Assembly: GCA_019058445.1 (NCBI GenBank)
Contig: JAHPZA010000006.1
Location: 544,001 to 608,000 of the forward strand
Source of the DNA: Promethearchaeota archaeon
Lineage (GTDB): Archaea > Asgardarchaeota > Lokiarchaeia > Sigyniarchaeales > SOKP01
Length of the DNA stretch: 64,000 nt
Reading direction: 5' to 3'
The notes beneath the pieces are model-generated. The model did no database searches and was not told the DNA's origin. It was given only the letters and a program-made list of their open reading frames with translations. Made by a program: the position numbers and the translations under genes. Of the stretch, positions 18,100 through 36,151 are shown piece by piece; positions within the stretch are counted from its first letter, which is position 1; every line of letters begins with the position of its first letter.

Positions 18100-19311
18100 A
18101 TGAAAGCTGTAGAAATATCTGCTGAATGGTCTCCAAAACCGAGTTTTAAACTCGGTTCTAAAGATATTGATGGCAAACTGACTTATTTAGGTTCCCAAGT
18201 ATGGAAAAATCCAGTAGTAACGGTTATTGACGATAAACCGATTCCAAAAATCAAGCCAAATGAAGTTCTATTACAAGTGAAAAGATGCGGAATATGTGGT
18301 TCTGATGTTCATATGGCTCAATCATATGATGATGGATATATCTATTATCCGGGATTAACTGCGTTTCCTGCAACCCTCGGTCATGAGTTTGCTGGTGAAG
18401 TAGTAGAAGTTGGCAGCCAAGCAATAAATAAGAGGACTGGCAAATTATATGAGAAAGGTGAACCTGTAACTGTGGAAGAAATGGTGTGGTGCGGTGAATG
18501 TAAGCCATGTTGTGACGGATTCCCAAACCATTGTGAAAGATTGCAAGAAATAGGATTCTCAATTGATGGAGCTTTTGCTGAATATATTGCTGTCCCTTCT
18601 AAATTATGTTGGAGTTTAAAAAAATTGGAAGGAAAGTATGAAGATATATATAAAATAGGCAGTTTAGTCGAACCAACTTCGGTAGCTTATAATGCTGTTA
18701 TAGAAAGAGGGGGAGGGATTAGACCGGGTGAGAATGTTGTTATTTTAGGAGCTGGTCCAGTCGGTTTGGCTTCTGCTCGTATTTTGAAAACTGCAGGAGC
18801 TGCACTTTGTATTGTTTCTGAGCCTAACGAGCATCGAGCAAAATTTGCTAAAACAATGGGTGCTGATTATACAATTAATCCTCAAAAAGAAAACTTTGTA
18901 GAGAAAGTAAAGGAGTATACCGATAACGATGGAGCTGCTTTATATCTTGAGGCAACAGGACTTCCTCAAGTAGTTACAGAGGATATTCAAAACTGTATTT
19001 GGGAATGTAAATCCGTCAATAGTACTGTTGTTATTGTGGCAAGGGCAGAGCAGAGAATGCCTGTTTGCGGTGAATATTTTCAAGTAAGAAGAGCCCGAAT
19101 TGTTGGTGCACAAGCTTAAATAGATCTCCTATTTAAAATGTATGGCCACAGCGGGCACGGAACCTTTCCAAATGTAATTAGTTGTATGGCTGCTGGAATG
19201 GACATGACACCATTGGTTACAAAAGAGATCTCATTAGATGATGTACCAGAAAATTTAAAATTACTTCAAACGGATAGGGAAAATTGCAAAATTTCTGCCA
19301 AAATTAACTAG
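18100..19311 (+). CDS. iolM: scyllo-inosose 3-dehydrogenase (Zn-dependent MDR); join(18100..19113,19144..19311), 393 aa after removing a 30-nt insert
   Basis: Motifs CGICGSD, LGHE, CGECKPCCDGFPNHC and GAGPVG. The expected IVGAQ-GHSGHGTFP junction is split by an in-frame 30-nt insert containing TAA. The downstream part is intact to TAG at 19309-19311. Confidence 0.85.
19114..19143 (+). other. Putative 30-nt BHB-type mRNA intron in iolM
   Basis: Sequence gcttaaatagatctcctatttaaaatgtat. Contains an 8-bp stem ttaaatag/ctatttaa, central helix gcac/atgt (3 of 4 pairs), bulges AA|G and AT|G, and exon stem tggt/gcca. Cutting at these points gives CAA-GGC (Q-G). Confidence 0.75.
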
Positions 19312-19316
19312 ATTTT

Positions 19317-21485
19317 TTAAAAATCATCTATTTTTTTTTGATTTTCTTTTTCATATTTATGGATTTTATTAAATTCTACTTTTAGTTGAGCATGGTTTTC
19401 TAAAAATTTCTTTAACTCTTTTTTATGATTTACTTTACAATAGTTAGAAAGCTTAATTTTCAAATCTTTTAATTCCCTTAAATTGGATGTAATATTGTTT
19501 TTCGTGACAACAATATTATTTATTACTATGTTATGGAAGATTTTTCTTTCTTCTTCGTTAAAATCCATTATTTCAGCAAATAAGTCATGTCGGATTATTA
19601 TAACCCTTTTAGAATACAAATTTCTTTCTTTTTCCGAAATTTTAGCATTCTTAGGAAAATCTATAACTTTTAAAGGCATATCTGAAATACCAATAATAAA
19701 AAGTAAAGTATAAGGTGTATAATATTTTCTAGCTTTATCTAAGATATTTTCTTCATTCAAATTACTAGTAAAATCGAATAAGATAATTTTATATTTAAAC
19801 AAATCTAATTTCAATTTAACAAGATTATCTCTAATTTTTTGAGTGAAATCTTTATTGACTATTAATAATCCATCAATTCGGTAGTTATAATTAAGAAATA
19901 TTACAATTTCAGAATAATATAGACTTCCCAGTTTCCTGGTCATTAAAAAATTGATACATTTATGAGAAAGAATACCTATATTTCTATATTTAGCAAAATA
20001 TGTATCGTTAAAACGGATGTCATATAAGGTAGGATTGAGGATTTTTTTCGCAATATCAGTTATAGGTCGTCTACTTACCCCATATGCCTTAGCAATTTTA
20101 GTTAGAGATCTTCCATTTTCAAAATCTCTAATCTCATTAACTATTTCGGAAATATCATTTATTAAATCTATTTTTATACCAATATTATCACTTATCACTT
20201 CTATAGAGATTCCAAGCTCCAAATCATTAATGATTTTATCCCTAAGGTCTATATTAGATAATGTGTTATAAAAACCCAAGAAATTAGCAATTTTTTGAAT
20301 TTTTTTTCGTGGTATATTATATTTTCTGGCAATATCCACGGGTACCCATTTATCTATTAACATCCTATATAATATACAATTTATAATTTCATTGTTCCTG
20401 TTGATTGAAACTACTTTTTTTATGGTTTCATCATAGTCAATGTCTTGATTTTTTGTCCAAGTCTTAAAATCACTTATAATCTTAAAACTATGAATAGGGC
20501 GAATTAAATACTTATCAGATTTAATGCTTAAACTGTACTCTTTTAATAAAAATTGTAATTTAGGATTATTAAAATTCTGAAAGCTAATTTCTGTTATTTT
20601 ATCATCTAATATATCCTTAGCAATCTTCATTATCTTTTCTTTAGTAATTATATCTCGTCCTCTCTTAAGGAGCTTTATATATTTCGAGACGGTTGATTTT
20701 GAAATGCCTGCTCTTTTTGCTATTTGTCTGGCACTTTCTTCTGTTTGAATGATTCTATGTACAACAAATTTTACAATCTCAGAATTTCTATTAATTATTT
20801 CACATTTTTTTAGAATCTCATCTTTATTCAATTTAGACGAATAACCATCTAAAATATTTATTAATTTAGATTCATCAATATTTTTTATCCATAGTGCAAA
20901 CTCTCTTGTAATTCTAACCACATTATATGGAGAGTTAGTTCCTGATATATTTCGATAATATTTTAGTAATCTCTGAAATTGGGGATGAGTAAAATTTTTA
21001 AATTCTATTCTTTCAATGTTTTCTGCTACTTTAATTATATAATTGTCGGAGAAAGTATGTTTAAATCGATTATCAAATTTATTCTTAATTACAATTTTAG
21101 CTATTTGATTTAAAGTTGAATCAGTCATATGAAATTTTTCCTTCAATTCTGTTAATGAAACTCCAAAAACGAAATCAATAATATCTAAAACTAGAAGGAA
21201 ATGATCTTCAATTGTTTTAAAATTAACGTTGCGCCTATCAGTTTGTATTCTCGAACATTTATATTTATTGACAAAATCATGAAATTTATTATCAATTTCC
21301 AAGAAAATTTTTTCATATGTTGGATTTTTGAATAATTTCTTATTTCTTCTTATCTTAATGATATCATTTAAAATATGAACGAATTTATAGGTTTCTCTAA
21401 TATTCAACTCTTTTTTTAAATTTATAATAAAATGATTTAATTCCAATATTAGTTTTTTCCGTTCAAATGATATTCTTTTTACCAT
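19317..21485 (-). CDS. Multi-HTH protein with C-terminal PD-(D/E)xK-like nuclease domain and PIP box (putative free-standing endonuclease)
   Basis: HTH-like motifs SLTELKEKFHMT, SARQIAKRAGISKSTVSKY, PVDIARKYNIP, SIEVISDNIGI and SLTKIAKAYGVS. Nuclease-like stretch GILSH..SE..RIDG..LFDFT..DKARKY. Ends in QKKIDDF. Confidence 0.6.
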   Translation of the reverse strand: MVKRISFERKKLILELNHFIINLKKELNIRETYKFVHILNDIIKIRRNKKLFKNPTYEKIFLEIDNKFHDFVNKYKCSRIQTDRRNVNFKTIEDHFLLVLDIIDFVFGVSLTELKEKFHMTDSTLNQIAKIVIKNKFDNRFKHTFSDNYIIKVAENIERIEFKNFTHPQFQRLLKYYRNISGTNSPYNVVRITREFALWIKNIDESKLINILDGYSSKLNKDEILKKCEIINRNSEIVKFVVHRIIQTEESARQIAKRAGISKSTVSKYIKLLKRGRDIITKEKIMKIAKDILDDKITEISFQNFNNPKLQFLLKEYSLSIKSDKYLIRPIHSFKIISDFKTWTKNQDIDYDETIKKVVSINRNNEIINCILYRMLIDKWVPVDIARKYNIPRKKIQKIANFLGFYNTLSNIDLRDKIINDLELGISIEVISDNIGIKIDLINDISEIVNEIRDFENGRSLTKIAKAYGVSRRPITDIAKKILNPTLYDIRFNDTYFAKYRNIGILSHKCINFLMTRKLGSLYYSEIVIFLNYNYRIDGLLIVNKDFTQKIRDNLVKLKLDLFKYKIILFDFTSNLNEENILDKARKYYTPYTLLFIIGISDMPLKVIDFPKNAKISEKERNLYSKRVIIIRHDLFAEIMDFNEEERKIFHNIVINNIVVTKNNITSNLRELKDLKIKLSNYCKVNHKKELKKFLENHAQLKVEFNKIHKYEKENQKKIDDF

Positions 21486-21641
21486 ATTTTTTTATTTTTA
21501 AATAATCAAGAGTATAATTTAATGGTCTAAAAATCATCTAACGTTTTTAATACTAACAGTAACATAATTTATTTATTTTTAAAAGAAAACCAGATATGAA
21601 TTGAATATTAAATTTTGTTTTAATTAGACTAATCAATGAAG

Positions 21642-21685
21642 GGACATATTGGTCATGGAACGCTTCTTATGTGATTTCTTGTATA
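21642..21685 (+). pseudogene. Degenerate relic of the start of iolM exon 2
   Basis: gga cat att ggt cat gga acg ctt ct- tat gtg att tct tgt ata = GHIGHGTLxYVISCI, versus GHSGHGTFPNVISCM in the functional copy. Confidence 0.8.
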
Positions 21686-21694
21686 TTTACTTCA

Positions 21695-22477
21695 TTAATG
21701 ATAATAGTCTATAAATTCTCCTTCGATTTTCTTAAAAGGAATTAGCTTAAATAATTCTTCGAAAAGATAATTATAGGTTTCTAAATCAAAAATTTTAAAC
21801 TCAAATGAGTATTTCTGAAAATCTCCTTCATCTAAATTGTTAAAATAATCAAAATATAATCCAATTTTATAATAATCTGTATAAGTGTGATCGACAGTTA
21901 TTGTTTTAATGTTAAATATATTGACAAAAATATATTTTTCAGTTAAATTAAAATTTTTTTTTGAATACTTAGATTTCAATTCTAAATAATTCTTAAGTTT
22001 CTTTTTCGGATAATTTTGAATCCATCTTTTATTAGTTAATATTTTATCTCTTCTAGTATCTGTTAATTTTTTATTTAAACCATATGTTCTGAATAAAATC
22101 CTTTCATCTCTTTCTAAATGATCGAATATTTCTGTTCTTGCTAAGATCATATTAATGCACTTAAGAACTGCAGGTATTATTTTTTTTTTAAAGGATTTTT
22201 TTGGCACAGCATAACCTTGCTCCCTTCTTCCTTTATAAAATATGTTTAATACACCATTTTCGACTTTAAATATAATCTTAAATAAAAAGTTCTTTGTAAT
22301 TAATTTTAATGTTGTCGATAAATGTTCACGAGGGCCATATTCTTTTATATTATAGCGAGATCTTTTAGTACCATAAATATTTGCTGTAATATTTCTCACA
22401 AATTCATCAAAAACTTCATTGATATCCTTCAGATATTTGTCTAGTCTAACAATTAGTTCTGGCTCTTCTTCCATCAT
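21695..22477 (-). CDS. Hypothetical protein (orphan, AT-rich)
   Basis: 260-aa ORF with no recognisable motif. Confidence 0.65.
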   Translation of the reverse strand: MMEEEPELIVRLDKYLKDINEVFDEFVRNITANIYGTKRSRYNIKEYGPREHLSTTLKLITKNFLFKIIFKVENGVLNIFYKGRREQGYAVPKKSFKKKIIPAVLKCINMILARTEIFDHLERDERILFRTYGLNKKLTDTRRDKILTNKRWIQNYPKKKLKNYLELKSKYSKKNFNLTEKYIFVNIFNIKTITVDHTYTDYYKIGLYFDYFNNLDEGDFQKYSFEFKIFDLETYNYLFEELFKLIPFKKIEGEFIDYYH

Positions 22478-22551
22478 CTTTCGTACAAATTTTTATAAAA
22501 AATGAATTGAATTCAAACTATTTGTTTAAAGTTAAAAAGAAATTAGAATTT

Positions 22552-22686
22552 ATAAATGCGATGGCAGCGGGTATGGATATGACACCCATGGTTACCAAAG
22601 AAATTAGTTTAGATCAAGTTCCTGAAAATCTCAAGCTTTTACAAACAGATCGAGAAAATTGTAAAATTTCTGCGAAAATAGCATAA
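22552..22686 (+). pseudogene. Displaced second copy of the iolM 3' end
   Basis: (INA)MAAGMDMTPMVTKEISLDQVPENLKLLQTDRENCKISAKIA*. 38/41 aa and about 93/126 nt identical to 19186-19311. Confidence 0.9.
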
Positions 22687-22727
22687 AATTTTGTTTAATT
22701 TCTAAATCTCTCTTTTTTTAATTACTC

Positions 22728-23795
22728 TTAAAACCTATAATCTGGTAAAGGTTCTTCAAAAACCCAGTGAAGTTCTTTAGGTAAATCATGATAATCCACT
22801 TGTTTTATGATATCCGTAAAATCTCGGCTGTTAAAGGTATTCCAAAATATTATCGTCTTATTTTTAATGTTTGGTTTGTTTTTATGGACGAAACCTAATA
22901 GCGCTGCAAATGTTTTCCCCGAATAAGTGGGCTCAAGAATAATATCTTCACCATTTTTTAAGATTTTAATAGCTTCAATACATTCTGGTGTTGGAATCCC
23001 ATAATCAATTCCATAATATTCCTCATTATAATGTAAATGCTCAAAAGTAATATCGGATATGGTATTACCAAAACTGTTTATATATTTTATAGTTCTATTG
23101 GATAACCGCCGTATTGCCCTGAAATTACAATCTCTCGAATAGGACACTTGTATAGCATGAATATTGGTCTTTAGTCCAGCAAGTTTTATTCCTAGCGTTA
23201 AACCTGCTGCCGTTCCAGCCGAAGCAGTCGGAACAAAAATATAATCTGGCTCAGGTATTTCTCCATTATCAACTTGATTTTTTAATTCAAACGCGGCATC
23301 TATATATCCTAAAGTCCCTAATGGATTACTGCACCCTACTACCATGTAGTAAAAATCATCAGTTTTAGGAATAGCATTGATTGGATAATAAAACTCGGTT
23401 TTATAATACAAATCTAATAATAAATTATCCCTCACGAAAGTAGAAACTGGTTGATCCATCATAACTGCTACAGGTTTCAATTTTAATTGATCGCAAAATA
23501 TTGCGTTTGCAACACATTGATTTGATCCAATGGTTCCTGCTGTGAGTATTTTTTTATAGTTCTGATTTAGAGCATCTGCATAAATAAATTCCATCTTTCG
23601 AGATTTATTACCTCCATACAGTGGAGAAGTAATATCGTCACATTTTACCCAAAGTGAGTTAATACCCAACTTGTCTTCTAATTTAGTTAATTTTTTGACT
23701 GGTGTCTGTGTAGGTACTAACTTCATCCATGGGATCTTTCCTTCAAGGTCGGGATATTTTTCAAATAATAGCGGTTTGCTTCGAGTTTCAGACAT
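22728..23795 (-). CDS. D-cysteine desulfhydrase / ACC deaminase family PLP enzyme
   Basis: Motifs LWVKCDD..YGGNKSRKMEF, GSNQ, ASAGTAAG and LEPTYSGK. Confidence 0.85.
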   Translation of the reverse strand: MSETRSKPLLFEKYPDLEGKIPWMKLVPTQTPVKKLTKLEDKLGINSLWVKCDDITSPLYGGNKSRKMEFIYADALNQNYKKILTAGTIGSNQCVANAIFCDQLKLKPVAVMMDQPVSTFVRDNLLLDLYYKTEFYYPINAIPKTDDFYYMVVGCSNPLGTLGYIDAAFELKNQVDNGEIPEPDYIFVPTASAGTAAGLTLGIKLAGLKTNIHAIQVSYSRDCNFRAIRRLSNRTIKYINSFGNTISDITFEHLHYNEEYYGIDYGIPTPECIEAIKILKNGEDIILEPTYSGKTFAALLGFVHKNKPNIKNKTIIFWNTFNSRDFTDIIKQVDYHDLPKELHWVFEEPLPDYRF

Positions 23796-23905
23796 TTTTC
23801 TAATCCAAATTTGTTATCGATCATATTAAAATTATGATTTTACATAAAATTTGGGATTACAAAAAAATTTCTAAAAAAATATCCAGCTTTTCCCGTTAAT
23901 CAAAC

Positions 23906-25663
23906 TTAATAAGAATTTGGTGGAAGTAATTCCATAGGATCAACTACTACATCAACCAAATTAAACCCATCTGATTTTATCGCATCTTTTATTGCGGAAT
24001 CAAGTTCTGAGAGTCTTTCTACTCGTATACCAGTTCCTCCAAATACTTCTGATATCTTTGCAAAATTAGTATTTGGCCTGTCTGTATCATAATATCTATG
24101 CTTGTAAAGCATTGCTTGTCCGAACTTAACAAATCCTAATGCAGAATTATTTATAATCACAATGGCACAATCTAAATCCAATTTTTGTATGGTCTCGAAT
24201 TCATTTAAACCTCCATTCATTAAACCTCCATCTCCAGTTAATAAAATCTTCTTAGGATTACTCTTATCAAAATCATACTTATCAGCTGCTATGCATGTTC
24301 CGATAAGTGCTCCCACACCAAATCCAGTGGGACCTACACCTCGAGGAGTGATAATTTTTCGACCGATGCTTTTGACTGGAAAATAAGCCCCTATCCATCT
24401 GGAGCTGGCACTTGCATCAGTAACTAAATAATCATTTTCTGTCATATTATCAGAAATAGCTTTTAAAATTCTTTGAGGCTTTATAGGATCGCTATTCATC
24501 CATTTTGCATTATCTATTTCACGATATTTTTTATGGTCAGATCTCAACTTCTCAATATTTATTAATCGCTCTTTAATTAAATCATGATCATTTTGTAAAT
24601 TGGTTATGCCTCGCTCAGTAAGAAATTTCAATATATCTGAAAGGGCTGCTTTAGGGTCTCCCACAACCCCCCAAGGATGATAATTAAGCCCAATTTCGGC
24701 AGGGTCGATGTCAATTTGAATCATTTCTGTTTTCTGAGTTGGAATTTTAAAATTTGCGGTATCATCCTCTGTCAATCTATTTCCAACAACAATAAGCAAA
24801 TCAGCTTTAGTTCTAATAAACTTATGGTTAGGTTTCTCACCAAAAAGACCAACAGTCCCAAGATACAAGTTTTCTTGACCTTTAATTTCTTGGACCATTA
24901 TCCCCTTGCCAGATATGGTAGAAAACACAGGAGCTTTTAATAATTCACTTAATTTTTTAATTTCAAAAAATGCTCCAGAATTAACAGCCCCCCCTCCAGT
25001 GTAAAATGCAGGTTGTTTGGCATCTCGTATCATTTCCACAGCTTGTTCTATTTCAGCACTAGGAGGTGCAATACGGCAGCTATTTATTGAACAAGATCCT
25101 TTTATACGAGGAATGAATTCTTTTAATTTCAATTCTGAAGAGGATATAACATCTTCTGAAATTATTAAGGCAACTGGCCCAGGTTTCCCATTTACAGCTT
25201 GCTTGATAGCGTATGTCATAAATCTTGGCAAATATTCTGCTGATAATACTTTTCCAGTCCATTTTGTAACTGGAGTCAATGTTTCTGCTACTTTAATATC
25301 GTGTGGAATATTCCTCAACTCATCATGTGATTTTATTACTCCAACAATAGCTAACACCGAAGAAGCTGAACCTCTAGCTTCAGCAAGTGCTACTGGAAAA
25401 TTCATAGATCCTGCTGCTCCAGCATCACAAACACCAAGTGTTCCTGTTACCCGTGAATATGCATCAGCAGCAAAACAGGCACTACGCTCATCATTAAATA
25501 ACACATGTTCAATCCCCCCCGTAGCAAGAATACCATCGTAAAATCCCAAAGTATGACCATCTGGAATCCCAAAGACATGCTCAACACCATGTTCTTTTAA
25601 AAACCTTGCCATCCCGTGCCCTGTATGAATAATTTGCCTCAAGTTTTCTGATTCCATTTTCAC
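23906..25663 (-). CDS. Thiamine pyrophosphate-dependent enzyme (acetolactate synthase-like)
   Basis: Motifs VFGIPDG, DERSACFAADAYSR, QIDIDPAEIG and GDGG...INNS. Confidence 0.85.
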   Translation of the reverse strand: MKMESENLRQIIHTGHGMARFLKEHGVEHVFGIPDGHTLGFYDGILATGGIEHVLFNDERSACFAADAYSRVTGTLGVCDAGAAGSMNFPVALAEARGSASSVLAIVGVIKSHDELRNIPHDIKVAETLTPVTKWTGKVLSAEYLPRFMTYAIKQAVNGKPGPVALIISEDVISSSELKLKEFIPRIKGSCSINSCRIAPPSAEIEQAVEMIRDAKQPAFYTGGGAVNSGAFFEIKKLSELLKAPVFSTISGKGIMVQEIKGQENLYLGTVGLFGEKPNHKFIRTKADLLIVVGNRLTEDDTANFKIPTQKTEMIQIDIDPAEIGLNYHPWGVVGDPKAALSDILKFLTERGITNLQNDHDLIKERLINIEKLRSDHKKYREIDNAKWMNSDPIKPQRILKAISDNMTENDYLVTDASASSRWIGAYFPVKSIGRKIITPRGVGPTGFGVGALIGTCIAADKYDFDKSNPKKILLTGDGGLMNGGLNEFETIQKLDLDCAIVIINNSALGFVKFGQAMLYKHRYYDTDRPNTNFAKISEVFGGTGIRVERLSELDSAIKDAIKSDGFNLVDVVVDPMELLPPNSY

Positions 25664-25825
25664 TCAAACACTATAAATTTATCATAGGATTTTAGGAATC
25701 GAAATTATAAAAAAGTCATTTCTAGAAATTATTAATTTATTCAATCTCAACCAAATCTGGATGAATTTCTCTAATAGAACTAAACAGAATTAATCAATTA
25801 GAATTTATAATTCATTATAATTTTT

Positions 25826-25949
25826 AATGAAAAATTATAATTTATCGCAAAACTTTATAAATAATTATAATCCGTTACAAAGATCAGTGATGGATTATAA
25901 TTTATTATAGGGAATTAATGATAGATTATAATTTATTACGGGAAATTAA
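25826..25949. repeat. Degenerate 30-31 bp tandem array with ATTATAAT core
   Basis: ATTATAAT occurs at 25834, 25864, 25894 and 25925. The last two units (25888-25918, 25919-25949) are nearly identical. Confidence 0.6.
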
Positions 25950-26075
25950 TCAATATTTATACAAAAACTTAAATATAAAATCTATTTTTACATTTTCAAC
26001 TTCAATTCGGACAAAAAAATACTATATCCCCTTTTCACTGATAAAAATCCGGGGTTATTTTTATAAAGATTATAA

Positions 26076-26984
26076 TTGCAAATCTTAGAAATTAAGGAGG
26101 TAGGACAGAATTTGGCAAATTTTCCAAATGAACTAAATTATGTTATAATTCCAGTAATAATCCTAGTCATTTTTCTTATTTATAGAAGTAGATTTAATCT
26201 AAAAAAGGGCACCTCAAAGTTTAAGGTTGCTTTTTTAATGGTGCTCTCGAATTTATTTCTGTTGTTAATCGCTGTATTCGCGATAGGAACTATGAATCTT
26301 GAAATTATTAGTACAATTGTGTCTTATGCTTTAGGAACTGCTTTCTTTCTTTACACTCTATACTTTACCATAAAAGTATTAGATTTACATGAAAAAACAA
26401 TTAAAAATATGCTCATTGAAAGTTCAGAGACTTCCATTGATGTTGCAAATATCGCAACAGAACTTGCAGCAAGTTCGAATGAAGTTAATGCTGCAGCGGA
26501 AGAAATAGCATCAACAACTCAAAATATTTTTATAAATAGTAAGAAAGTAATGTCTTCTACTGATGATATTCAAAAACTTATGAGCCTAATTATCAACATT
26601 TCAGAGCAAACGAATTTACTAGCTTTAAATGCGAGTATAGAAGCCGGGAGAGCAGGTGAATATGGCAGGGGTTTTGCGGTAGTTGCTGATGAGGTAAGAA
26701 AATTGGCCGAAGAATCAAAGACTTCAATTAAAAATTCTTCTGAAAAAATAGATGAGATAATACAACAAATTCGAGATACATATATGGAAATGGAAGGTAT
26801 TAGTGCATCTACTGAAGAACAAACATCGTCAATGGAAGAGATCAATTCAACTGCAGAGAGACTTAGTGCACTAGCTGAAGAACTGAAAACTAGTTTAAAT
26901 CAGTATGCTAATGATATTGAGTCAACGAAAACTAAAGCTAAAGTGCAACCTAAATCAAATGATTATTTAAATATTATCATATAA
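26076..26984 (+). CDS. Short methyl-accepting chemotaxis-like protein
   Basis: [39 protein letters not shown] hairpin; three N-terminal TM segments. Confidence 0.9.
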
Positions 26985-27858: not shown

Positions 27859-28049
27859 AATAATCTAATTATTTGTCCTTATTTTAAAAAATTTAAGATA
27901 ATTTTTGAGAATTATATGTCAAAACTTTTTTCTCAAGGTCGAGAAGTTTATATAAATAGTACGTTATATAATTAAATAAAATATGATTTAATTATGAAGA
28001 AATAAACCAATTTCCTCGTAATTATTTTAAAGATAAAGGTAGGATTGAT

Positions 28050-30980
28050 TTGAATAAAAAAAAAAAATTACTAACAGTATTAATACTGACTCTAGTATTT
28101 ACATCCTCTCTTTTTTATATAACAAAAATCGGCAATAATGATGATTTAACAACGGATAATAATACAAAAATTCATCAACTAAATGATGATCTAACAAAGG
28201 AAGACCCTACTGATTTTGAGGAGTTAGATCAGTTAAAAACAGCCAACGGTCAATCTGAATCAAGCTTAAATTTTTCATTTGATTCAAAATTAGATGATGT
28301 TTGGAATAGCACCTGGTATTTCGAAAATTATGAGAGTTTTCAAGATTTAGAACTACCATATACAGAGGGTCATAATGTATCTTATCTGATATCTATTAAT
28401 GATCTGAGAAATAAAACGACGATGCAACCAATACTTCCAAGTGATCTCTCAGCAAATGGGTATTATTTTATTTTGGCTTACAGAAATGGGACTTATACCC
28501 TTGAATTCTTGGCTGGCATTACTGATTTTACTTATCAATCGCTTGAGGGTAATGTTGCATTTCCAAATAATGTTCCTGGAACTTTTTTAATAGCCTCTAA
28601 TGCAAGTATCATATATAATGTCACTATAACTTTAAACAGTACAAGAAGTGAGATCATTAGAACAGAATTCATTCCAGATCCGGATAATACTATAACTGAT
28701 ATGATTAATTGGGAATTAAGATTTTCCGGTTATGCCCCGGGTAATTATAGCGGAGTTTTAGAAGTCGATGAAATCTCAAAATTTACATTGCATCGTGTTT
28801 TAGGTAATGAAGAGGGATATTGGAGACCTATTAATTATACTAAAATTGGAACGCAGTTTTTTTTTAATAAGTCATACCTAGAATATTTGCTTGAACTTCG
28901 AACACCCAATTATCTTTCTGTGACATTTAACGACAATCTAACTGTTTCAAATAACGAACTACGTCTTTATGCAACATGTAATATGCCTGGTAACCTGACT
29001 ATTGAATTTACTGATGCTAATGGCACTCTATTTAGAAATGTTACAGAAAATGTTGAAAATGGGCAAATTGTCTTTTATAACTACATCATGCCACTAAATT
29101 CATCTGGTGGTATAGGTTTTCTTAACATTACTCTCACAAATTCCTCAAATATATATTTTGGTGCAAAATTCGCTGATATCACATTCTTTAAGCAAGGGTT
29201 TATTTATGCCTTTACAAGTAATACTACAGCTTTTTCAGAATTTTACGCTATCGCCCCATATATAGATTATGATATTTTTAATGACTTAGTACAGCGTAAT
29301 AACACTTATAATCTTGGTTTAACGATATTTGAAATTCTTAATCGAAGTATAATTCATGGTGCTACAGTAACTTATGAACTTGGAGAAATTTCTGGTGAAT
29401 TAGAAGACACTATCCTAGTAATTAATGAAAGTGGAGTATTATATAATGCTAATTTTTATTTTAAAGTAATAGATTTACGGGAATACTTAATACCTCCAGG
29501 AGAGTATAATCTGACCTTTAGAGCAAGTAAACCTGGATACACAAGTGTGGAATATATTACATCTTTACATATTTTTAAAAAAGATGTATATATACTCGTC
29601 CAAGTAACCCCTCCAGATAATATCTTCACGATTGAGGAACCTTTTGCTCTTGCTATAAGCATGCATGTATATTATCCCCATTATGAGAATTTCTTAAGAG
29701 TACCTGTAAATTTATCAATAGACATATGGAGGGGAACTGTATTAGAGGATCATCTCAATGTCCCAAACGTGGTTCAATCACTTACCCTTCAAGATGTCAT
29801 AGGCAATACAACTATTCCAGGAGATTATACGTTGAATATAACTATTTTATCAGAGTATTATGAAGGAAATGTATCGGTTGAGGTTGAGATTCAAAAGAAA
29901 GAGCTCGATCTTTCCTTGGTTTATGATAATGAGGTAGATGAGGATGAGGATTTTGATATCCTTTGGTCATTAGAACATGGAAATTTTACGGGTAATCGAG
30001 AAAACATGACATTAGAAATTTATTTAGATGGACGACTAATTAGCACGGTAAATTTAACAGCAACTAATGCCTCTTCGGGAGTATTACCTCTTAAGCTTGA
30101 TGAGGGAGATTATACTATCACGTATCGTCTTACTAGTCCTTTCTATGAGGCTGAAAGAATAATTTCAATTGAGGCCACAGGTGGAAAATCCAAAAAAGAA
30201 GAACCATCATGGTTAGAAGAAAATTGGTTCCTATTGTTATTACTTATCCTTGCTATAATCGCCATGAGCATTTTTGGAGTATATATGACTATCTCGAGAA
30301 GACGAGTGAAGGCTCAAAGAGAATTGGACTCAGAACTCGTAGCCCTTAAGACGAGAATAGCTGCTACAGAAGATAATATTTCCCTCATTCAAACACAAAT
30401 ATCAGAAATTGCTGGAATTTATTGGATATTGGTTATACATTCTGAACAAGGAACTACGATGGTTGAAATCACTGAATTTAGATTTAGCGAAGTATTGGGT
30501 GAAGAATTTAAAGTCTTCGTAGAAGAGGGCATGATTCGAGATTCTGCGCTCATCGGAGGTTTTTTAACAGCAATACGCAATTTCAGTAGAGAGACTTCAG
30601 GGGAGTCTCATGAATACCAGCCTATTTTTAATAGTCAAACAGATTATAGTACGATTGTAAATGAAAAAGAAGTTCATAGGAGAATTTTAGAGGGGACCGG
30701 TTATTTCATGGCATTTATTTCTGCGAGAGGAACAATGGAAATTTCAGAAGTTTTATCTGCAGTAAATTCCAAGTTCCATGAAGGGTATGGAGACGCTGCA
30801 AAAGAATTCTTAGGCAAAATTACGGTATTTAATCCATTTAAAGAAGAGGTGGTAAGATATCTCCATAATGAAATTAGGGAATTGCAGAAAAAACTGGAAG
30901 ATGAGATTCTTTTACGTCAACACTATGAAAGCCATTTAAAAAAGGTTCAAGATAAAATTGGCATCAAGAAAAATAAATAA
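28050..30980 (+). CDS. Large membrane-anchored glycoprotein with cytoplasmic coiled-coil and longin-like domain
   Basis: N-terminal signal/TM. Beta-rich ectodomain with more than 25 N-x-S/T sequons. TM helix WFLLLLLILAIIAMSIFGVY. Cytoplasmic part contains YWILVIHSEQG and DSALIGGFLTAIRNFSRE. Confidence 0.7.
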   Translation: MNKKKKLLTVLILTLVFTSSLFYITKIGNNDDLTTDNNTKIHQLNDDLTKEDPTDFEELDQLKTANGQSESSLNFSFDSKLDDVWNSTWYFENYESFQDLELPYTEGHNVSYLISINDLRNKTTMQPILPSDLSANGYYFILAYRNGTYTLEFLAGITDFTYQSLEGNVAFPNNVPGTFLIASNASIIYNVTITLNSTRSEIIRTEFIPDPDNTITDMINWELRFSGYAPGNYSGVLEVDEISKFTLHRVLGNEEGYWRPINYTKIGTQFFFNKSYLEYLLELRTPNYLSVTFNDNLTVSNNELRLYATCNMPGNLTIEFTDANGTLFRNVTENVENGQIVFYNYIMPLNSSGGIGFLNITLTNSSNIYFGAKFADITFFKQGFIYAFTSNTTAFSEFYAIAPYIDYDIFNDLVQRNNTYNLGLTIFEILNRSIIHGATVTYELGEISGELEDTILVINESGVLYNANFYFKVIDLREYLIPPGEYNLTFRASKPGYTSVEYITSLHIFKKDVYILVQVTPPDNIFTIEEPFALAISMHVYYPHYENFLRVPVNLSIDIWRGTVLEDHLNVPNVVQSLTLQDVIGNTTIPGDYTLNITILSEYYEGNVSVEVEIQKKELDLSLVYDNEVDEDEDFDILWSLEHGNFTGNRENMTLEIYLDGRLISTVNLTATNASSGVLPLKLDEGDYTITYRLTSPFYEAERIISIEATGGKSKKEEPSWLEENWFLLLLLILAIIAMSIFGVYMTISRRRVKAQRELDSELVALKTRIAATEDNISLIQTQISEIAGIYWILVIHSEQGTTMVEITEFRFSEVLGEEFKVFVEEGMIRDSALIGGFLTAIRNFSRETSGESHEYQPIFNSQTDYSTIVNEKEVHRRILEGTGYFMAFISARGTMEISEVLSAVNSKFHEGYGDAAKEFLGKITVFNPFKEEVVRYLHNEIRELQKKLEDEILLRQHYESHLKKVQDKIGIKKNK

Positions 30981-31104
30981 GATTTTTTTAACTATCTAAT
31001 TCTTTTGAATTTTTAATTTCTTTTTTTGGAATATTAAAAGATTTAACATTGATTTGAGATTTAATTAATTAACACCATTAAATTTGAGAAGTGATAAGTA
31101 AAAA

Positions 31105-32073
31105 ATGACCGATTGGAATTTACCTCCTAAGGGCGGACACATGGATTTACCCGATGGGATTTATTTACAAAATATGAGTATTGCTGAAATTAAAGAGAGA
31201 GTCAGCAAAAACGATGTTATCATCATTCCTACTGGATCAACGGAAAATCATGGTCCCGCAGCATGTATTGGTGAAGATACTTTTCTTGTAACGAGAATGG
31301 CCGAATTAGTAGCACAAAAAACTGGATGTACAGTAGCTCAACCTACTTGGTATGGTTCTCATCCTTATCATCATGTGGGAATGCCAGGTACCATCATTGT
31401 CCCCGAAGAAACGTTTAAAGGTCTCTTACGTTCAGTAATGGCTGGCTGCTGGAATATGGGCTTTAGAAAGATGATTTTATTGAACGGGCACGGTCAAGAA
31501 TATGTGATCCCTTCTGCTATCCATGAATTCGCAAAAAATTATCAATTACCAATGGTGATATGCAATGTAAATTGGTATCATGCAATTCCTGATCATTGTA
31601 TGGATAAAGAGCATGGAGGTCCCTTTGAGACTCCTTTTATCCATGCAGACGAAGCAGAAACTTCATTTTCTATGACTTTATTCCCAGAAATGGTAAAAAA
31701 GATCGATGCCTGCGAGGATAATGAAGTTGTGGGATGGATGCCAGATGGACATGTTGATAAAGCGGGAAATGTATATCAAAAACCAATTCGATGGTATGGA
31801 CAAGTTGGTTTTGGTCCTATAGAGGTTGCAGCATATCCTGAAGGGCACGTCGGTTGCCCTAGTAAAGCAACTTTCGAGAAAGGTAAACCAGGCATGGAAG
31901 CATTTTTAGATTACCTTGAAAAATTGGTGAACGATATTTTGAAAACTTTTCCCCCTGGAAAATTGCCCCCAATTGAAGGTATAACGCAGAGAGATCCGAA
32001 GGACATTGAGCCCTATATAAAAGGCCCTCTGAATGGTGGAAAGAGTATCTATGAATTAAGATATCCCCCTTAA
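31105..32073 (+). CDS. iolN: 3-dehydro-scyllo-inosose hydrolase (creatininase family)
   Basis: Motifs PTGSTENHG, GEDTF, WYGSHPYHHVGMPGT, NGHGQEY and FETPFIHADEAETS. Confidence 0.85.
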   Translation: MTDWNLPPKGGHMDLPDGIYLQNMSIAEIKERVSKNDVIIIPTGSTENHGPAACIGEDTFLVTRMAELVAQKTGCTVAQPTWYGSHPYHHVGMPGTIIVPEETFKGLLRSVMAGCWNMGFRKMILLNGHGQEYVIPSAIHEFAKNYQLPMVICNVNWYHAIPDHCMDKEHGGPFETPFIHADEAETSFSMTLFPEMVKKIDACEDNEVVGWMPDGHVDKAGNVYQKPIRWYGQVGFGPIEVAAYPEGHVGCPSKATFEKGKPGMEAFLDYLEKLVNDILKTFPPGKLPPIEGITQRDPKDIEPYIKGPLNGGKSIYELRYPP

Positions 32074-32102
32074 ATCATGATTTTTTTTCTTTTTTTTTAA
32101 TT

Positions 32103-32459
32103 TTAGCCGGGTTCAACTGTTTTATTAATAATATTAAAAATTTGACTTACTTCTACTTGATCTTCAGTTAATAAAATGATGATATGTTCAAGAAGTTTAA
32201 TAGATACAATATAATAATTAGCAGAGTGGATAATGTTAAAATCGGGATTATGAATTCCAATCTCTGCTGTGATATCTTCGGCTAATTCGTAGAGTTGAGA
32301 GATATTTAAAGAAATCGATGCCTTATTGAACTCATCATCATTAATATAGGATTTTCTCACAACTCCATTTTCCGAACTAATGATTATAAAATAGACGCTT
32401 GAACCTAATTCTTGTATTAAATTATTTAAAATAGAATCAAGATCTATCGAAACAGTCAT
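32103..32459 (-). CDS. Roadblock/LC7-like protein
   Basis: 118 aa; helix, then FIIISSENGVV, helix and three strands. Confidence 0.6.
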   Translation of the reverse strand: MTVSIDLDSILNNLIQELGSSVYFIIISSENGVVRKSYINDDEFNKASISLNISQLYELAEDITAEIGIHNPDFNIIHSANYYIVSIKLLEHIIILLTEDQVEVSQIFNIINKTVEPG

Positions 32460-32592
32460 AATCTTATAAAATTAGAAAAACGTTTATTATTTATAATTAT
32501 AAATTTGAATTAATAAATAATTTTAGTTTAAATCTAATTATTTAAATCTAGTTATCTTAACTAATTAAAAATTTATTCTAGGATTTTATATC

Positions 32593-33435
32593 ATGTATAA
32601 ATATGGGATTAATTTATTATTGTGGACAAGCTGTTTTACTAAAAAAGATTTATACTTAATTAAAAAAGTAAAAGAACTAGGCTGTGATGTTGTTGAAATA
32701 CCAATTTTTAATCCTGAAGATTTTCCCTCCGAGTTAGTTAAAAATGAACTGGTAAAATATGAGTTAGAAGCATGTGTATGTTATGGATGCGAAAGGGAGT
32801 CTGATATTGCATCATTAGATAACAAAATAAGAAAAAAAGGCATTGAAAGATTTAAAAAAGCTATAGATCACACTAAGATCTTAGGAGCAACCAAAATTGG
32901 AGGGGTGGTTTATAAAGCGGGAGGTATGTTTACAGGATCAGCACCTTCAGATGTAGAGTGGAGTAATTCAGTTAATTCAATGCGAGAAATAGCAAGATAT
33001 GCCCATCAATTTAACATTTCAATCTGTGTTGAACAGATCAATAGGTACGAGACATATTTTATTAATACCACTAAAGACGCCTTAAATTACTGCTTAGATG
33101 TTGGAAAACCAAATATGCAAGTTCTACTTGATACTCATCATTTAATTCTGGAAGAATTGAACTTGTACGATGCGATTCTTATGACCGGGAATCGATTAGG
33201 GCATTTTCATACCTCTGAAAATAATAGAGGAATTCCTGGAACAGGACAAGTAGATTGGATTAATGTGTATAAAGCCTTAAAAAAGATTAAGTACTCTGGA
33301 TGGTTGGTTATAGAATCTTTTTATATTGGCTTTGGGAATATTTGGAAACCACTCGCAGATTCTCCAGAACAATTAGTGATTCAAGGATTGAATAATCTAA
33401 AAAATATTGAAGAACAAATCAAAAATGAACGATAA
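32593..33435 (+). CDS. Sugar phosphate isomerase/epimerase (D-psicose/D-tagatose 3-epimerase family)
   Basis: Motifs DVVEIP, EQINRYETYFINT, LDTHH and HTSENNRGIPGTG. Confidence 0.85.
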   Translation: MYKYGINLLLWTSCFTKKDLYLIKKVKELGCDVVEIPIFNPEDFPSELVKNELVKYELEACVCYGCERESDIASLDNKIRKKGIERFKKAIDHTKILGATKIGGVVYKAGGMFTGSAPSDVEWSNSVNSMREIARYAHQFNISICVEQINRYETYFINTTKDALNYCLDVGKPNMQVLLDTHHLILEELNLYDAILMTGNRLGHFHTSENNRGIPGTGQVDWINVYKALKKIKYSGWLVIESFYIGFGNIWKPLADSPEQLVIQGLNNLKNIEEQIKNER

Positions 33436-33516
33436 GTAAAAGAAATATTACATAATTTAATATAATCCAAGAATAAAGAAAATTTAAAAAAAATTTTAAT
33501 CAATATTAATAATTCA

Positions 33517-34347
33517 TTAATCTTTTGTACTTAGTAAGGATCCCTTTAATTCTTCTGCAAGATTTCCTAATCTATTTGCAGTAGCAGTAATTTCTTCCAT
33601 TGACGCTGTTTGTTCCTCTGTAGAGGCACTAATCCCTTCCATTGAACCAGAGGTTATTTGAATTTTTTTAATAATTTCATCAATTTTATTACCAGTATCC
33701 ATTACCGCTTTCTTTGATTCTTCAGCCAATTTTCTGACCTCATCAGCTACGACTGCAAATCCTCGTCCATGCTCCCCTGCTCTCCCTGCTTCTATGCTTG
33801 CGTTTAGGGCCAAAAGATTCGTTTGTTCAGAAACATTTCTAATCAGATGCATAATTGTGTTTAATTCATTAGTTGAAGCAGTAACCTCTTGAGCATTGCT
33901 AGAAATAACTTGGGCTGTGCTTGCAATTTCTTCAGAAGAAGCATTGACTTCGCTGGCACTAGCAGCTAATTCTGTTGCCATATTAGCTACATTTATACTT
34001 GCATTTGACGCGGTATCAATTACATTTCTCATTTTGTCATTAGACTCTTGAAGCCCTGACTCGATAATTGGGATTATAATCCAAAAGATTCCGACAGTTG
34101 CTACAAATATCATAAAACCCGATGCAAAAGCATCTCCAAAAGCTTCACTCCAGAAACCCAATTTTTCCATAGCATTCCCTAAAGCAAATAACCCCGCTCC
34201 AGCAAAGAAAAAGCAAAAAGTTAAATTTGTCATACTTTTCTTTCGTAAATATGCATGGAATGCTATTGCTGTTGCACCAAAGAAACAAATCATTCCAATA
34301 AAATTAAATGTTCCATCAATAAGATCCACCATTGTAGTTCTCACCAC
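33517..34347 (-). CDS. Short methyl-accepting chemotaxis-like protein
   Basis: [38 protein letters not shown] hairpin; three TM segments. Confidence 0.9.
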
Positions 34348-34652
34348 CCCTCCTTTTTAGGGGATTTTGATTGTACTGTTAGCTTTTTAGACATTTTGAT
34401 ATAATGCATAAAGATCATTGCACCAAGAAAAGAGATTCCAGCTAGCATGATAAAAAAATGCTCTAAAAAATTAAATAAGTCTGGTGCAACAAAAGCTTCT
34501 ATATTTGTAAAAAGGAATGAAAGTGCAAGAAATGAGGCACCTGGTACTACTAAAAGCATTTCCTTTCTCTTTTTGATAACGATAGGAGCAAAAGCAAAAT
34601 CAATTATACAAAGCAGTAGTGGTATGAATTCAAGTAGTTCAAATTCTGGCAT
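34341..34652 (-). CDS. Small 3-TM membrane protein, coupled to the MCP gene
   Basis: GGTGA RBS; hydrophobic; stop abuts the MCP start. Confidence 0.7.
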
Positions 34653-34975
34653 TAATTATCACCTTCCTCGTTTTATAATAATTATTGTTACATAGAACGT
34701 ACTATAATTTTTACTTAAGTTTTCCTTGATAAGTTATTGTTTGTTTTACACGTACGTATAAGTTTTTTTTAAATATTAATTCGAATTCACTACCTAAGAG
34801 TATAGTTGTATACAATCTAACTACAAAAGAGTAAAAAACCAATTCTACTGAATATATATTCAATTAACCGTATAAAGAAGTTTAACCATTAGATGATTAG
34901 CTCATATTTTTTAAAAATTAGTAGAATTAATTGATATTTAAGATTTGATTACTCGAATGTAAAAAAGATAAAAGA

Positions 34976-35080
34976 TGGGCCTAGCAGGATTCGAACCTGC
35001 GACATCCCAGTCCGAAGCCGGGTACCCTTTCTGGAAATCTTCCTTGGTGGAAGGTAAAATCCAGACTAGATTACAGGCCC
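34976..35080 (-). tRNA. tRNA-Arg(TCG) with a 30-nt D-loop intron (35029-35058, position 20a/21)
   Basis: Acceptor GGGCCTG/TAGGCCC; anticodon arm CCCGG-CT TCG GA-CTGGG; T arm GCAGG-TTCGAAT-CCTGC. Central helix ctgg/ccag with bulges AT|T and AA|A gives a 75-nt mature tRNA. Confidence 0.9.
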
Positions 35081-35233
35081 GCGTTGAAAATCTTGCGTTC
35101 TTTGATGAAAATATTAAGATGACTAATGTTATTATATTTTCATCTAGTATTTCTAAAAAAGATTTTCATAAACCATTAAGCGATTTTAAAAAGATTGCGT
35201 TCCTAAAAAACATGGGTTTGAAAGATAAATTAT

Positions 35234-35668
35234 TTATTTCTTACATTTGGAAACTAATTTCATATAATCTACTAAAAGTCGAAGAAAATTTTTCACTTTG
35301 AAAGCATGAGAAAGATTTCCATGGACTTTCATCCATCCTTTCATATATGCTTCAGTCCCGCTTATTTCACCCTTAAATATGTTTAGTATCAAATCTTTGG
35401 TAAAAAAAATTCGGATTGAAGTATTCTTATTAACTCCTTTTTTATATGTGATATTTCCTTTAGAAACACCAATCCAAAAGTTAAAGCTTAAATCGGTTAT
35501 ATGAAATTGATATACTGCATCAAAATCAATTATTTCTTCTAATAACTCATCAGTTGTTTGGATTAAATTAATGCCAAAATTGATAAATTTATCTAGTACT
35601 TGCACTACTTCTTGATCATTATCAGTTAATTTATTTATAATTGAATCAATAGAATAGGTGATTAACAC
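35234..35668 (-). CDS. SCP2 sterol-carrier-like domain protein
   Basis: Motif ISGTEAYMKGWMKVHGNL. Confidence 0.8.
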   Translation of the reverse strand: MLITYSIDSIINKLTDNDQEVVQVLDKFINFGINLIQTTDELLEEIIDFDAVYQFHITDLSFNFWIGVSKGNITYKKGVNKNTSIRIFFTKDLILNIFKGEISGTEAYMKGWMKVHGNLSHAFKVKNFLRLLVDYMKLVSKCKK

Positions 35669-36013
35669 TGTAAATTCTCTATTTACTGATTTGTTATTAG
35701 ATATATATGGTGCTCTATAAACAAATTGTACTTTTTAAAATATTTATATTTTTCTATTGAAACGATGCTAAAATGGAATTAAAGTGTTAAAAATTGATAA
35801 GTCATTTTAAATCTTTCAATTAGTTTATTTAGCTATTCTTTTGCAAGCTTTTAATCATTATATTTTCATTTCGGTTTGAAAATTAACATTAAATAAATTA
35901 AAAAAAAATAATACCTTACTCTTAGAATATGCTTAAATTTAAGTGTTAGAATAAAATTTTTAAGTTTTTAATTATTTGTTTTGTTATAGAAATTTTGTAT
36001 CTCTAACTTTTCT

Positions 36014-36151
36014 GCCCACATAGTGTAGAGTAAGGTTTTACTTCGAACCTACACATAACTCGGTCCAGCATTCGGGACTGTCACTCCTGCGACGCGGGTT
36101 CAAAGAGATGTGCGCTTTCCGCACATGAAGAAAATCCCGCTGTGGGCGCCA
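36014..36151 (+). tRNA. tRNA-Asp(GTC) with two 30-nt introns (36029-36058 at 15/16; 36105-36134 at 59/60) and encoded CCA
   Basis: Acceptor GCCCACA/TGTGGGC plus GCCA; anticodon loop CT GTC AC. Removing both introns gives a 78-nt cloverleaf with D-loop AGCTCGGTCCA and T-loop TTCAAAT. Confidence 0.9.

Follow-up and report, generated by a model that had tools for sequence, protein, structure and literature searches.

In the 64,000-nt stretch of DNA analysed here (the window), three genes of a Promethearchaeota archaeon are interrupted by four inserts, each of exactly 30 nt. The features are as follows.

18100–19113, forward strand: exon 1 of an iolM-type zinc dehydrogenase gene, 338 codons, ending in RIVGAQ (from the list of open reading frames)
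19114–19143, forward strand: putative BHB intron of iolM, 30 nt, a 10-codon insert relative to intact homologues
19144–19311, forward strand: iolM exon 2, from GHSGHGTFPNV to the stop codon, in the frame of exon 1 and aligned to the C-terminus of 392-aa homologues
34976–35080, reverse strand: tRNA-Arg(TCG), exons 35080–35059 and 35028–34976
35029–35058, reverse strand: putative tRNA-Arg intron, 30 nt, in the D-loop after nucleotide 20b
36014–36148, forward strand: tRNA-Asp(GTC), exons 36014–36028, 36059–36104 and 36135–36148, with CCA at 36149–36151
36029–36058, forward strand: putative tRNA-Asp D-loop intron, 30 nt, after nucleotide 15
36105–36134, forward strand: putative tRNA-Asp T-loop intron, 30 nt, at position 59/60, with a 7-bp hairpin and the loop CUUUC

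The three intron sequences spelled out in the first-pass annotation were each found once, exactly as given, and the fourth was placed at 36029–36058. Its statement that these are all the introns in the window holds within the reach of the scans, whereas a stop-free intron that does not shift the frame would escape them.

The interrupted genes

The two iolM open reading frames are in the same frame and are split by one TAA codon inside the insert. Exon 1 contains the Pfam domains ADH_N and ADH_zinc_N, and homologues at 81–94% identity carry the name scyllo-inosose 3-dehydrogenase. Removal of the 30 nt results in an intact dehydrogenase of 393 aa; the lengths of 114 of 120 homologues fall between 391 and 398 aa. 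The eight full-length homologues that were aligned all lack exactly these 10 codons, and RIVGAQ is joined to GHSGHG. A DNA contig of one relative carries iolM precisely without this intron. In other relatives, variants of 30 and 28 nt occupy the same site, with compensatory changes in the stem (one A-T pair is replaced by G-C) and with all 4 pairs of the central helix formed. Across the iolM orthologues, twelve introns were found at three sites: six of 30 nt and one of 28 nt, three of 30 nt and one of 29 nt, and one of 30 nt. These sites, A, B and C, are occupied in metagenome-assembled genomes of Promethearchaeota, Hodarchaeota and Hermodarchaeota, and the intron is absent in most orthologues.

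Without splicing of the iolM insert, one would be dealing with a pseudogene, an assembly error, or read-through of the stop codon with 10 extra residues retained. The presence of only a single stop codon and the preserved frame agree with such a reading. However, the insert occurs at the same site in independent assemblies from several studies, both exons are intact and conserved, and the design of the insert is that of the introns in the presumably essential tRNAs. In addition, the 29-nt insert at another site would break the frame, and the 28-nt variant shifts the frame and thus must be removed. An unspliced insert is considered highly improbable. In two metatranscriptomes, the RNA contigs stop short of the iolM junction, and no RNA reads or contigs covering the junctions of any of the four introns were found.

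After removal of the introns, tRNA-Arg(TCG) and tRNA-Asp(GTC) are both 75 nt long, with ARAGORN scores of 113.3 and 119.1, respectively, and 21 of 21 stem pairs (by the profile parse for tRNA-Asp). ARAGORN called neither of them on the unspliced DNA. Rfam gave a partial, sub-threshold match of 22.7 bits to the unspliced tRNA-Arg.

Folding of the introns and the splicing enzymes

The geometry 1+9+5+9+4+2 had been given for the iolM, tRNA-Asp T-loop and tRNA-Arg introns. It is correct as a partition of length in all three; the pairs really formed in the stem number 8, 7 and 5, respectively. The iolM intron consists of 1 nt, a hairpin of 23 nt in which 8 bp enclose the loop AUCUC, and stretches of 4 and 2 nt; 3 of 4 pairs are formed between the 4 nt and the exon GCAC. 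The tRNA-Asp T-loop intron likewise forms 3 of 4 pairs in the central helix, and in both introns the outer helix is complete, with 4 of 4. The mismatch in the central helix adjoins the 5' bulge in both introns, and the AA|G 5' bulge with mismatches on both its sides, which had been described as common to the two, was observed.

The tRNA-Asp D-loop intron is divided into 1+23+4+2, as proposed, and in the centred hairpin 6 bp enclose a loop of 6 nt. The 3' ACAU of the intron pairs with the exon GUGU (central helix 4 of 4, outer helix 2 of 4), and the minimum-energy fold contains a competing 6-bp helix. In the relatives, (A/G)CA(U/A) is kept in the same register in introns of 30, 30, 29, 31, 30, 31 and 25 nt. 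In the tRNA-Arg intron, the central helix CUGG/CCAG is perfect, with 4 of 4 pairs. The flanking helices are weak (a 5-bp hairpin with the loop ACCAA, and an outer helix with 1 of 4 pairs), and at least 2 bp on each side are found only in relaxed form. The minimum-energy fold is a 6-bp helix with 2-nt internal loops, and therefore the motif is relaxed.

All four introns have an intron-side hairpin, and their bulge register fits two A-rich 3-nt bulges (AA|G, AU|U, AG|A), while the minimum-energy folds give internal loops of 2 nt or wider, so that these motifs count as relaxed. The z-scores of thermodynamic folding are modest, from −0.6 to −2.0, and lend weak support when taken alone. We infer from the sequence that the four inserts are genuine BHB introns, which would be spliced from the pre-tRNAs and the iolM pre-mRNA. 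The archaeal splicing endonuclease would cut the introns out of these precursors, and RtcB would then rejoin the exon ends. It is reasonable to take the tRNAs as an internal control, suggesting that the host processes the relaxed motif seen in iolM.

The RtcB ligase is encoded in this genome. The EndA found is a beta-like subunit in which Tyr is replaced by Phe and His by Ser; the catalytic EndA subunit was not found in this 92.6%-complete assembly. Nineteen of 20 relatives have two EndA paralogues, and in the stronger paralogue of one same-genus relative (a single sequence) all three catalytic residues, Tyr, His and Lys, are retained. An (alpha-beta)2 splicing endonuclease with an L1 loop is known from TACK and Asgard archaea (Kaneta 2018, PMC5829648). 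Similarities to that enzyme are the two paralogues of the relatives, the catalytic triad in the stronger one (single sequence) and the absence of Tyr and His from the weaker one, as seen in this genome. A difference is the lack of a catalytic subunit in this assembly. As far as the sequences go, the paralogues of the relatives fit the (alpha-beta)2 Asgard architecture with broad specificity.

Length and design of the introns across genes and genomes

In the search for tRNA introns in this genome, lengths from 10 to 120 nt were allowed at a flat cost, with no preference for 30 nt. The 29 resolved introns are 18, 24, 26, 27, 29 (five), 30 (ten), 31 (five), 32, 33, 36, 57 and 66 nt long; thus 10 of 29 are exactly 30 nt and 20 of 29 are 29–31 nt. 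About 18 expected isoacceptors are unrecovered and about 8 loci unresolved in this census, which may be biased to simple genes, and splice boundaries within loops may be off by 1–2 nt.

Orthologues of tRNA-Asp were found in 21 relatives, giving a comparison of 22 genomes, which are not independent samples. Among the 31 tRNA-Asp introns, 19 are 30 nt and 25 are 29–31 nt. They sit at six positions, after nucleotides 15, 17, 20b, 27, 53 and 59. One tRNA-Asp among the relatives is intron-free, and presence or absence differs between close relatives. Inserts in 23S rRNA measure 30 and about 31 nt. The first-pass annotation had treated the equal lengths as more than coincidence and had named a broad distribution as the outcome if this were wrong. 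The mode was found to be sharp across the genome, and it extends to the relatives, the other iolM sites and 23S rRNA. Four equal lengths could arise by chance from a broad distribution: the window holds only four cases, and a preprint gives a median of 22–23 nt across the Asgard genomes censused (10.64898/2026.10.13.758758). Nevertheless, coincidence is refuted by the census, with 28–31 nt in 20 of 29 introns of this genome, 25 of 31 tRNA-Asp introns and 12 of 12 iolM introns, and its chance is regarded as negligible. According to the median in the preprint, the 30-nt mode is not valid for Asgard archaea overall.

A centred hairpin was found in 41 of 62 introns and a pentaloop in 37 of 62. Of the 13 pentaloops in introns of this genome, 11 have C as the last base, compared with 14% for all 9-5-9 hairpins of the genome. 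Between introns at different sites, the best local similarity score was 13, against 11.5 ± 1.1 for shuffled sequences; this score was reached by 34 of 200 shuffles, and the means were equal. The earlier description of the introns as unrelated in sequence thus holds for local similarity across sites, but not for the loop end: a loop ending in UC is the only sequence feature common to non-orthologous introns. Among ten distinct 30-nt orthologues of the tRNA-Asp T-loop intron, all 9 hairpin pairs show compensatory changes, and none of 500 shuffles reached the observed pairing. The hairpins of the 59/60 orthologues are almost randomised, with about 50% identity overall, and the 30 nt and the pairing are kept.

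Stop-free 30-nt introns hidden in proteins, which the first-pass annotation had also proposed, could amount to some tens of copies at most.

Cause of the common length and comparison with known introns

These results point to BHB introns of one design class with constrained length, present in tRNA, 23S rRNA and protein-coding genes, a reading to which we give a probability of roughly 0.7. The class would span a Promethearchaeia (Lokiarchaeial Asgard) family. An intron of this design begins with a single bulge nucleotide and ends with two; in the centre is a hairpin of 23 nt, typically with 9 bp and a pentaloop ending in UC, and it is followed by 4 nt that pair with the exon directly upstream of the 5' cut. 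The hairpin sequence drifts and compensatory changes restore the pairing, with the total staying at 30 ± 1 nt. Introns at newly occupied sites are of this size too.

One explanation of the common length is pure history, that is, a recent burst of insertion of units of about 30 nt, which have had no time yet to drift in length. The introns of about 30 nt at tRNA-Asp positions 17, 20b, 27 and 53 and at iolM sites B and C agree with it, as do the variable presence among close relatives and the intron-free tRNA-Asp. However, the 59/60 orthologues have lost half of their identity and are still 30 nt and paired, the dissimilarity of non-orthologous introns (13 against 11.5 ± 1.1) speaks against recent copying, and the conserved loop end points to selection. 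History alone is considered unlikely.

The first-pass annotation had suggested a length ruler or a common intron-generating mechanism. The sharp 30-nt mode agrees with this inference, but the size rule is not absolute, as the outliers of 18, 24, 26, 27, 32, 33, 36, 57 and 66 nt show. In its strict form, the EndA of this clade would measure the hairpin and cut introns of about 30 nt only. In favour of such an enzyme, the sharp mode is seen in three RNA classes, and the hairpin sits at the centre of the intron, with a conserved loop that keeps a fixed distance of 9 bp to the cuts. On the other hand, introns of 18, 24, 26, 27, 36, 57 and 66 nt are present in presumably essential tRNAs. The tRNA introns of 18–66 nt show that splicing does not depend on a length of 30 nt. 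We know of no archaeal EndA with a ruler function, and the loop contact is a conjecture. In the archaeal EndAs characterised so far, recognition is limited to the 4-bp helix and its two bulges (PMC5829648, PMC4090602). A strict ruler is judged as unlikely as history alone.

As the cause of the fixed length, a structural constraint on hairpin size is favoured, because orthologues keep their length, stems compensate and the loop end is conserved. A role of hairpin size in processing, for instance by a loop contact at a fixed distance from the cuts, is proposed tentatively, at slightly less than even odds. The 30-nt units at new sites fit a common source as well. New copies may derive from existing mini-introns, which is compatible with the constraint on hairpin size; we rate this as rather less likely than not. 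Still more speculative, and on the unlikely side, is a second recognition element in this splicing system: the UC-ending loop, 9 bp (one helical turn) from the cut sites, would be read by the non-catalytic subunit of EndA or by a partner protein. Eukaryotic TSEN measures distance, and the proposed reading of the loop would be loosely alike. If true, any place where four exon nucleotides can pair with a standardised 30-nt cassette would allow its splicing, which would explain how it came to spread to mRNAs and rRNA. In an alternative to this reading, the cassette would itself be a mobile RNA element, copied by reverse splicing.

In general, BHB introns are seen as peculiar to tRNA and rRNA, with cbf5 as the one documented exception in a coding region. 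Non-canonical and multiple BHB introns are known from the tRNAs of Thermoproteales (Marck and Grosjean 2003; Sugahara 2008; Fujishima 2010; PMC4090602). These are also protein-spliced, with a 3-nt bulge on each side of a 4-bp helix and often relaxed motifs. A gene may contain several of them, and they occupy numerous sites in the tRNA, including 59/60 and the D-loop; the EndA there has broad specificity. In the accounts found, one size is not described for them, whereas the introns here are 30 ± 1 nt with a centred hairpin and a UC-ending loop. Related introns of Thermoproteales share sequence, which is interpreted as transposition, whereas no such sharing was seen here between different sites.

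[quoted passage not shown] Their focus is on Atabeyarchaeia, Freyarchaeia and Jordiarchaeaceae, with a median of 22–23 nt, in contrast to the 30-nt mode of the Promethearchaeia family here; a fixed design is not described there, and mRNA and rRNA are outside their scope. The cbf5 pre-mRNA of Crenarchaeota contains a BHB intron (Watanabe 2002; Yokobori 2009, PMC2738675). As in iolM, it lies in a coding region and is gained or lost among relatives; there it is removed by the tRNA splicing machinery. The cbf5 case concerns one gene in Desulfurococcales and Sulfolobales and is verified with RNA, whereas iolM has three sites with introns of about 30 nt, whose splicing is inferred from DNA.

In the literature searched, neither a report of a fixed BHB intron size nor a description of a fixed 30-nt hairpin intron design was found. 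This lineage, one of the closest relatives that eukaryotes have among prokaryotes, would carry one 30-nt cassette in tRNA, rRNA and metabolic mRNAs. New sites have gained it repeatedly, with selection visible on structure and length. The origin and spread of protein-spliced introns, the features recognised by the endonuclease of this clade, and the extent of mRNA splicing by the tRNA machinery in Asgard archaea become testable.

Such introns also affect annotation. Gene calling truncates iolM here to 339 aa, and most tRNAs escape the standard tools: ARAGORN reports 5 intron-free ones on the 4.6 Mb. Truncated genes and missed tRNAs distort both the annotations and the completeness estimates of these genomes.

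Introns in the window and detection of the tRNA genes

According to a string search, the three 30-mers that the first-pass annotation had described as introns, in iolM, in the T-loop of tRNA-Asp and in the D-loop of tRNA-Arg, each occur once, at the places reported for them. The fourth 30-nt insert is located at 36029-36058, in the D-loop of tRNA-Asp. The features are as follows.

19114-19143 (+), 30-nt intron of iolM
36014-36148 (+), tRNA-Asp(GTC), with 30-nt introns after nucleotides 15 (36029-36058) and 59 (36105-36134); profile search
35080-34976 (-), tRNA-Arg(TCG), with a single 30-nt D-loop intron (35029-35058); profile search

The introns of iolM, the Asp T-loop and tRNA-Arg were described with the geometry 1+9+5+9+4+2, that is, one bulge nucleotide, a centred 23-nt hairpin, 4 nt pairing with the exon and two bulge nucleotides. 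This geometry holds as a partition of length, but the real stem pairs number only 8, 7 and 5. For the Asp D-loop intron there is a competing 6-bp helix, but the register of the first-pass annotation is backed by the relatives.

Standard tools detected no tRNA in the window, and Rfam gave only a sub-threshold partial match over its tRNA region. On the whole genome (assembly G000, in which the window is C6:544001-608000; 4.6 Mb, 10 contigs, 31% GC, completeness rated 92.6%), ARAGORN detected just five intron-free tRNAs. The two tRNA genes were identified by our own profile search, which charged one flat cost for any insertion of 10-120 nt; the matches were then refined on the cloverleaf pairs. 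The profile needs a GC preference at the stem positions, without which multi-intron tRNAs were drowned in noise. After removal of the introns, tRNA-Asp and tRNA-Arg each form 21 of 21 stem pairs, with ARAGORN scores of 119.1 and 113.3, respectively.

Intron lengths in tRNA genes

Twenty-four tRNA genes of the genome were resolved, three of them intron-free, and 29 introns were obtained in a search that gave no preference to 30 nt anywhere. Their lengths are 18, 24, 26, 27, 29 (five introns), 30 (ten), 31 (five), 32, 33, 36, 57 and 66 nt; where a splice site lies inside a loop, its position may be in error by 1-2 nt. The most frequent site is 59/60, with seven introns. Of the outliers, the 18-nt intron (37/38) and the 57-nt intron (after 38) are at or adjoining the canonical anticodon-loop site, and the 66-nt intron is in a D-loop. 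As the outliers extend from 18 to 66 nt, the size rule is not absolute.

The census is partial. About eight loci, including a tRNA-Tyr candidate (C10:387336) and tRNA-Pro (C4:98728), could not be parsed automatically and were kept out of the counts; by eye, the tRNA-Pro locus contains two inserts of about 29-30 nt. About 18 of the isoacceptors to be expected are missing from the set recovered, including those for Asn, Gln, His and Phe and several for Ser, Pro, Leu and Met. These are probably more heavily interrupted, or unassembled. At C1:131025-131127 (+), ARAGORN gives an intron-free tRNA-Lys(TTT) at 131053-131128, and the acceptor stem pairs only with the start at 131025 and a 29-nt intron after nucleotide 15.

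The tRNA-Asp genes parsed in 22 genomes from this genus, family and order, which are related and hence non-independent samples, contain 31 introns. Of these, 19 measure 30 nt, and 25 fall within 29-31 nt. A broad distribution of tRNA intron lengths without a 30-nt mode, which the first-pass annotation had named as counting against its proposal, was thus observed neither in this genome (10 of 29 introns at 30 nt) nor in tRNA-Asp of its relatives. The introns of the relatives are located after positions 15, 17, 20b, 27, 53 and 59. In one relative (G028; stretch L125) the tRNA-Asp gene is interrupted four times, after 17, 27, 53 and 59, by introns of 28, 29, 30 and 30 nt, and the orthologue of another (G030; L114) has none. 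Heavy interruption of Asgard tRNA genes has already been published (PMC11291895; 10.64898/2026.10.13.758758).

Inserts in iolM and in other genes

The iolM gene is divided into two ORFs (18100-19119 and 19138-19311) in the same frame, with one TAA between them. Lengths of 391-398 aa are found in 114 of 120 homologues. In eight aligned full-length homologues RIVGAQ runs straight into GHSGHG, and exactly 10 codons are absent. The nearest orthologue (94% identity) comes from 'Promethearchaeia archaeon', and dozens more are found in metagenome-assembled genomes of Promethearchaeota, Hodarchaeota and Hermodarchaeota; these orthologues mark the organism as an Asgard archaeon of Lokiarchaeial type. 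Five truncated homologues from other samples all stop at the same residue, and the DNA of three of them contains an insert at the same site. The first insert is 30 nt and forms its central helix (GUGU) without a mismatch. The second is 28 nt and frame-shifting, its stem being shorter by one pair and an A-T pair being changed to G-C. The third, again of 30 nt, has a hairpin quite unlike the others and a GUGC helix that is fully paired. In a DNA contig of a relative from the source study, the 30 nt are precisely absent. Neither a pseudogene lesion nor stop-codon read-through accounts for frame-shifting, co-varying inserts in otherwise intact genes.

Named genome assemblies contain additional introns at this site (site A), each of 30 nt. 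At a second position (site B), four genomes have introns of 30, 30, 30 and 29 nt. The gene in Promethearchaeota MAG CSMAG_2517 (L022) has a 30-nt intron at a third position (site C) together with a 30-nt intron at site A. Two metatranscriptome runs cover small shares of iolM only, and their contigs end before the intron, so they have no bearing on splicing. Directly downstream of iolM and convergent with it, a 722-aa AT-rich ORF is located at 19317-21485 (-).

[quoted passage not shown] In the searchable literature, which leaves many subscription journals outside, neither a fixed 30-nt class nor Asgard mRNA BHB introns were found described. According to the ORF scan, five 30-nt BHB-type inserts interrupt ORFs, at C9(-) 269043, C10(-) 684116, C10(+) 5858, C9(-) 775863 and C2(-) 158336. 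Removal of the insert restores the conserved sequence MNPEE/GELRPQ (the slash marks the junction) in a ChlI/D-type chelatase and QMTD/SDDEEQERGITI in EF-2; a Sir2-like motif and the hydrolase motif CHPHPQ/FGGNM are also restored. The chelatase and EF-2 cases were independently recovered, and the other three are candidates.

In the generic scan for ORF-interrupting BHB motifs, the counts per length with the true geometry equal those of decoys with 5' bulges of 1, 5 or 6 nt, and just a handful of strong 30-nt matches stand above the background. As this background is high in a genome of 31% GC, the generic scan gives no length distribution of mRNA introns. When the search was restricted to the exact 1+9+5+9+4+2 design and to loops that end in TC, there were 360 matches, against 296-336 in the decoys; thus further copies of the design, hidden stop-free ones included, amount to some tens at most. 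The 23S rRNA gene, which lies outside the window, has extra blocks of 30, about 31 and about 126 nt in its 3' part (C1:203935-205438 (-), corresponding to L130:8436-9939) relative to Rfam RF02540. One of them, at C1:204546, fits a BHB. The extra blocks are probably mini-introns of the same 30-nt class.

Hairpin size and splicing machinery

The design was compared among 62 introns of 27-33 nt from the genome, the tRNA-Asp orthologues and iolM. In 41 introns the hairpin is predicted to lie exactly at the centre of the 23-nt middle segment, and 37 have a loop of five nucleotides. Of these 37 pentaloops, 30 have U at position 4 and 27 have C at position 5; among the independent introns of the genome alone, C ends 11 of 13. 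In the genome background of all 9-5-9 hairpins, 14% have C at the loop end and 35% have U at position 4. The bulge positions are rich in A. Beyond the loop end and the A-rich bulges, no sequence similarity was detected between non-orthologous introns (best local score 13, shuffles 11.5 +/- 1.1).

Homology is visible throughout the series of tRNA-Asp introns at 59/60, which remain at 30 nt down to about 50% identity. In ten distinct 30-nt members, 74% of the hairpin positions are paired, and compensatory double changes are present at all nine pairs. Column shuffles gave a mean of 51% and never reached the observed value, and slid registers gave 18-66%.

Lengths would be expected to scatter if any stable hairpin sufficed, whatever its size, and according to a preprint the median is shorter, at 22-23 nt, in the Asgard genomes of its census (10.64898/2026.10.13.758758). 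We therefore favour a clade-specific constraint on hairpin size, with the loop end as a candidate contact point. The first-pass annotation had proposed a length ruler or a common generating mechanism; the 30-nt mode agrees with its proposal, and of the two ideas the constraint on size is preferred. Descent of new introns from existing 30-nt cassettes also fits, as 30-nt units occur at new sites as well, but the sequences retain no trace of copying. Off-target integration of CRISPR spacers, REP/RAYT-type hairpin spread and the 30-bp histone repeat were also considered, and were dropped as unsupported.

The genome encodes the ligase RtcB. The sole gene with a domain of the splicing endonuclease EndA in the assembly is C9:770313-770918 (+), outside the window. 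In the alignment with M. jannaschii EndA, it has Phe in place of Tyr115 and Ser in place of His125; judging from these replacements, the product is a beta-like, non-catalytic subunit. No second EndA gene was found in the assembly except for one weak match inside a methyltransferase-like ORF, and the alpha gene is presumably located in the unassembled portion. Two EndA paralogues are present in 19 of 20 relatives, and the stronger paralogue of a same-genus relative (one sequence) keeps the Tyr, His and Lys residues. These pairs are consistent with the (alpha-beta)2 endonuclease that has been reported from Asgard archaea (PMC5829648).
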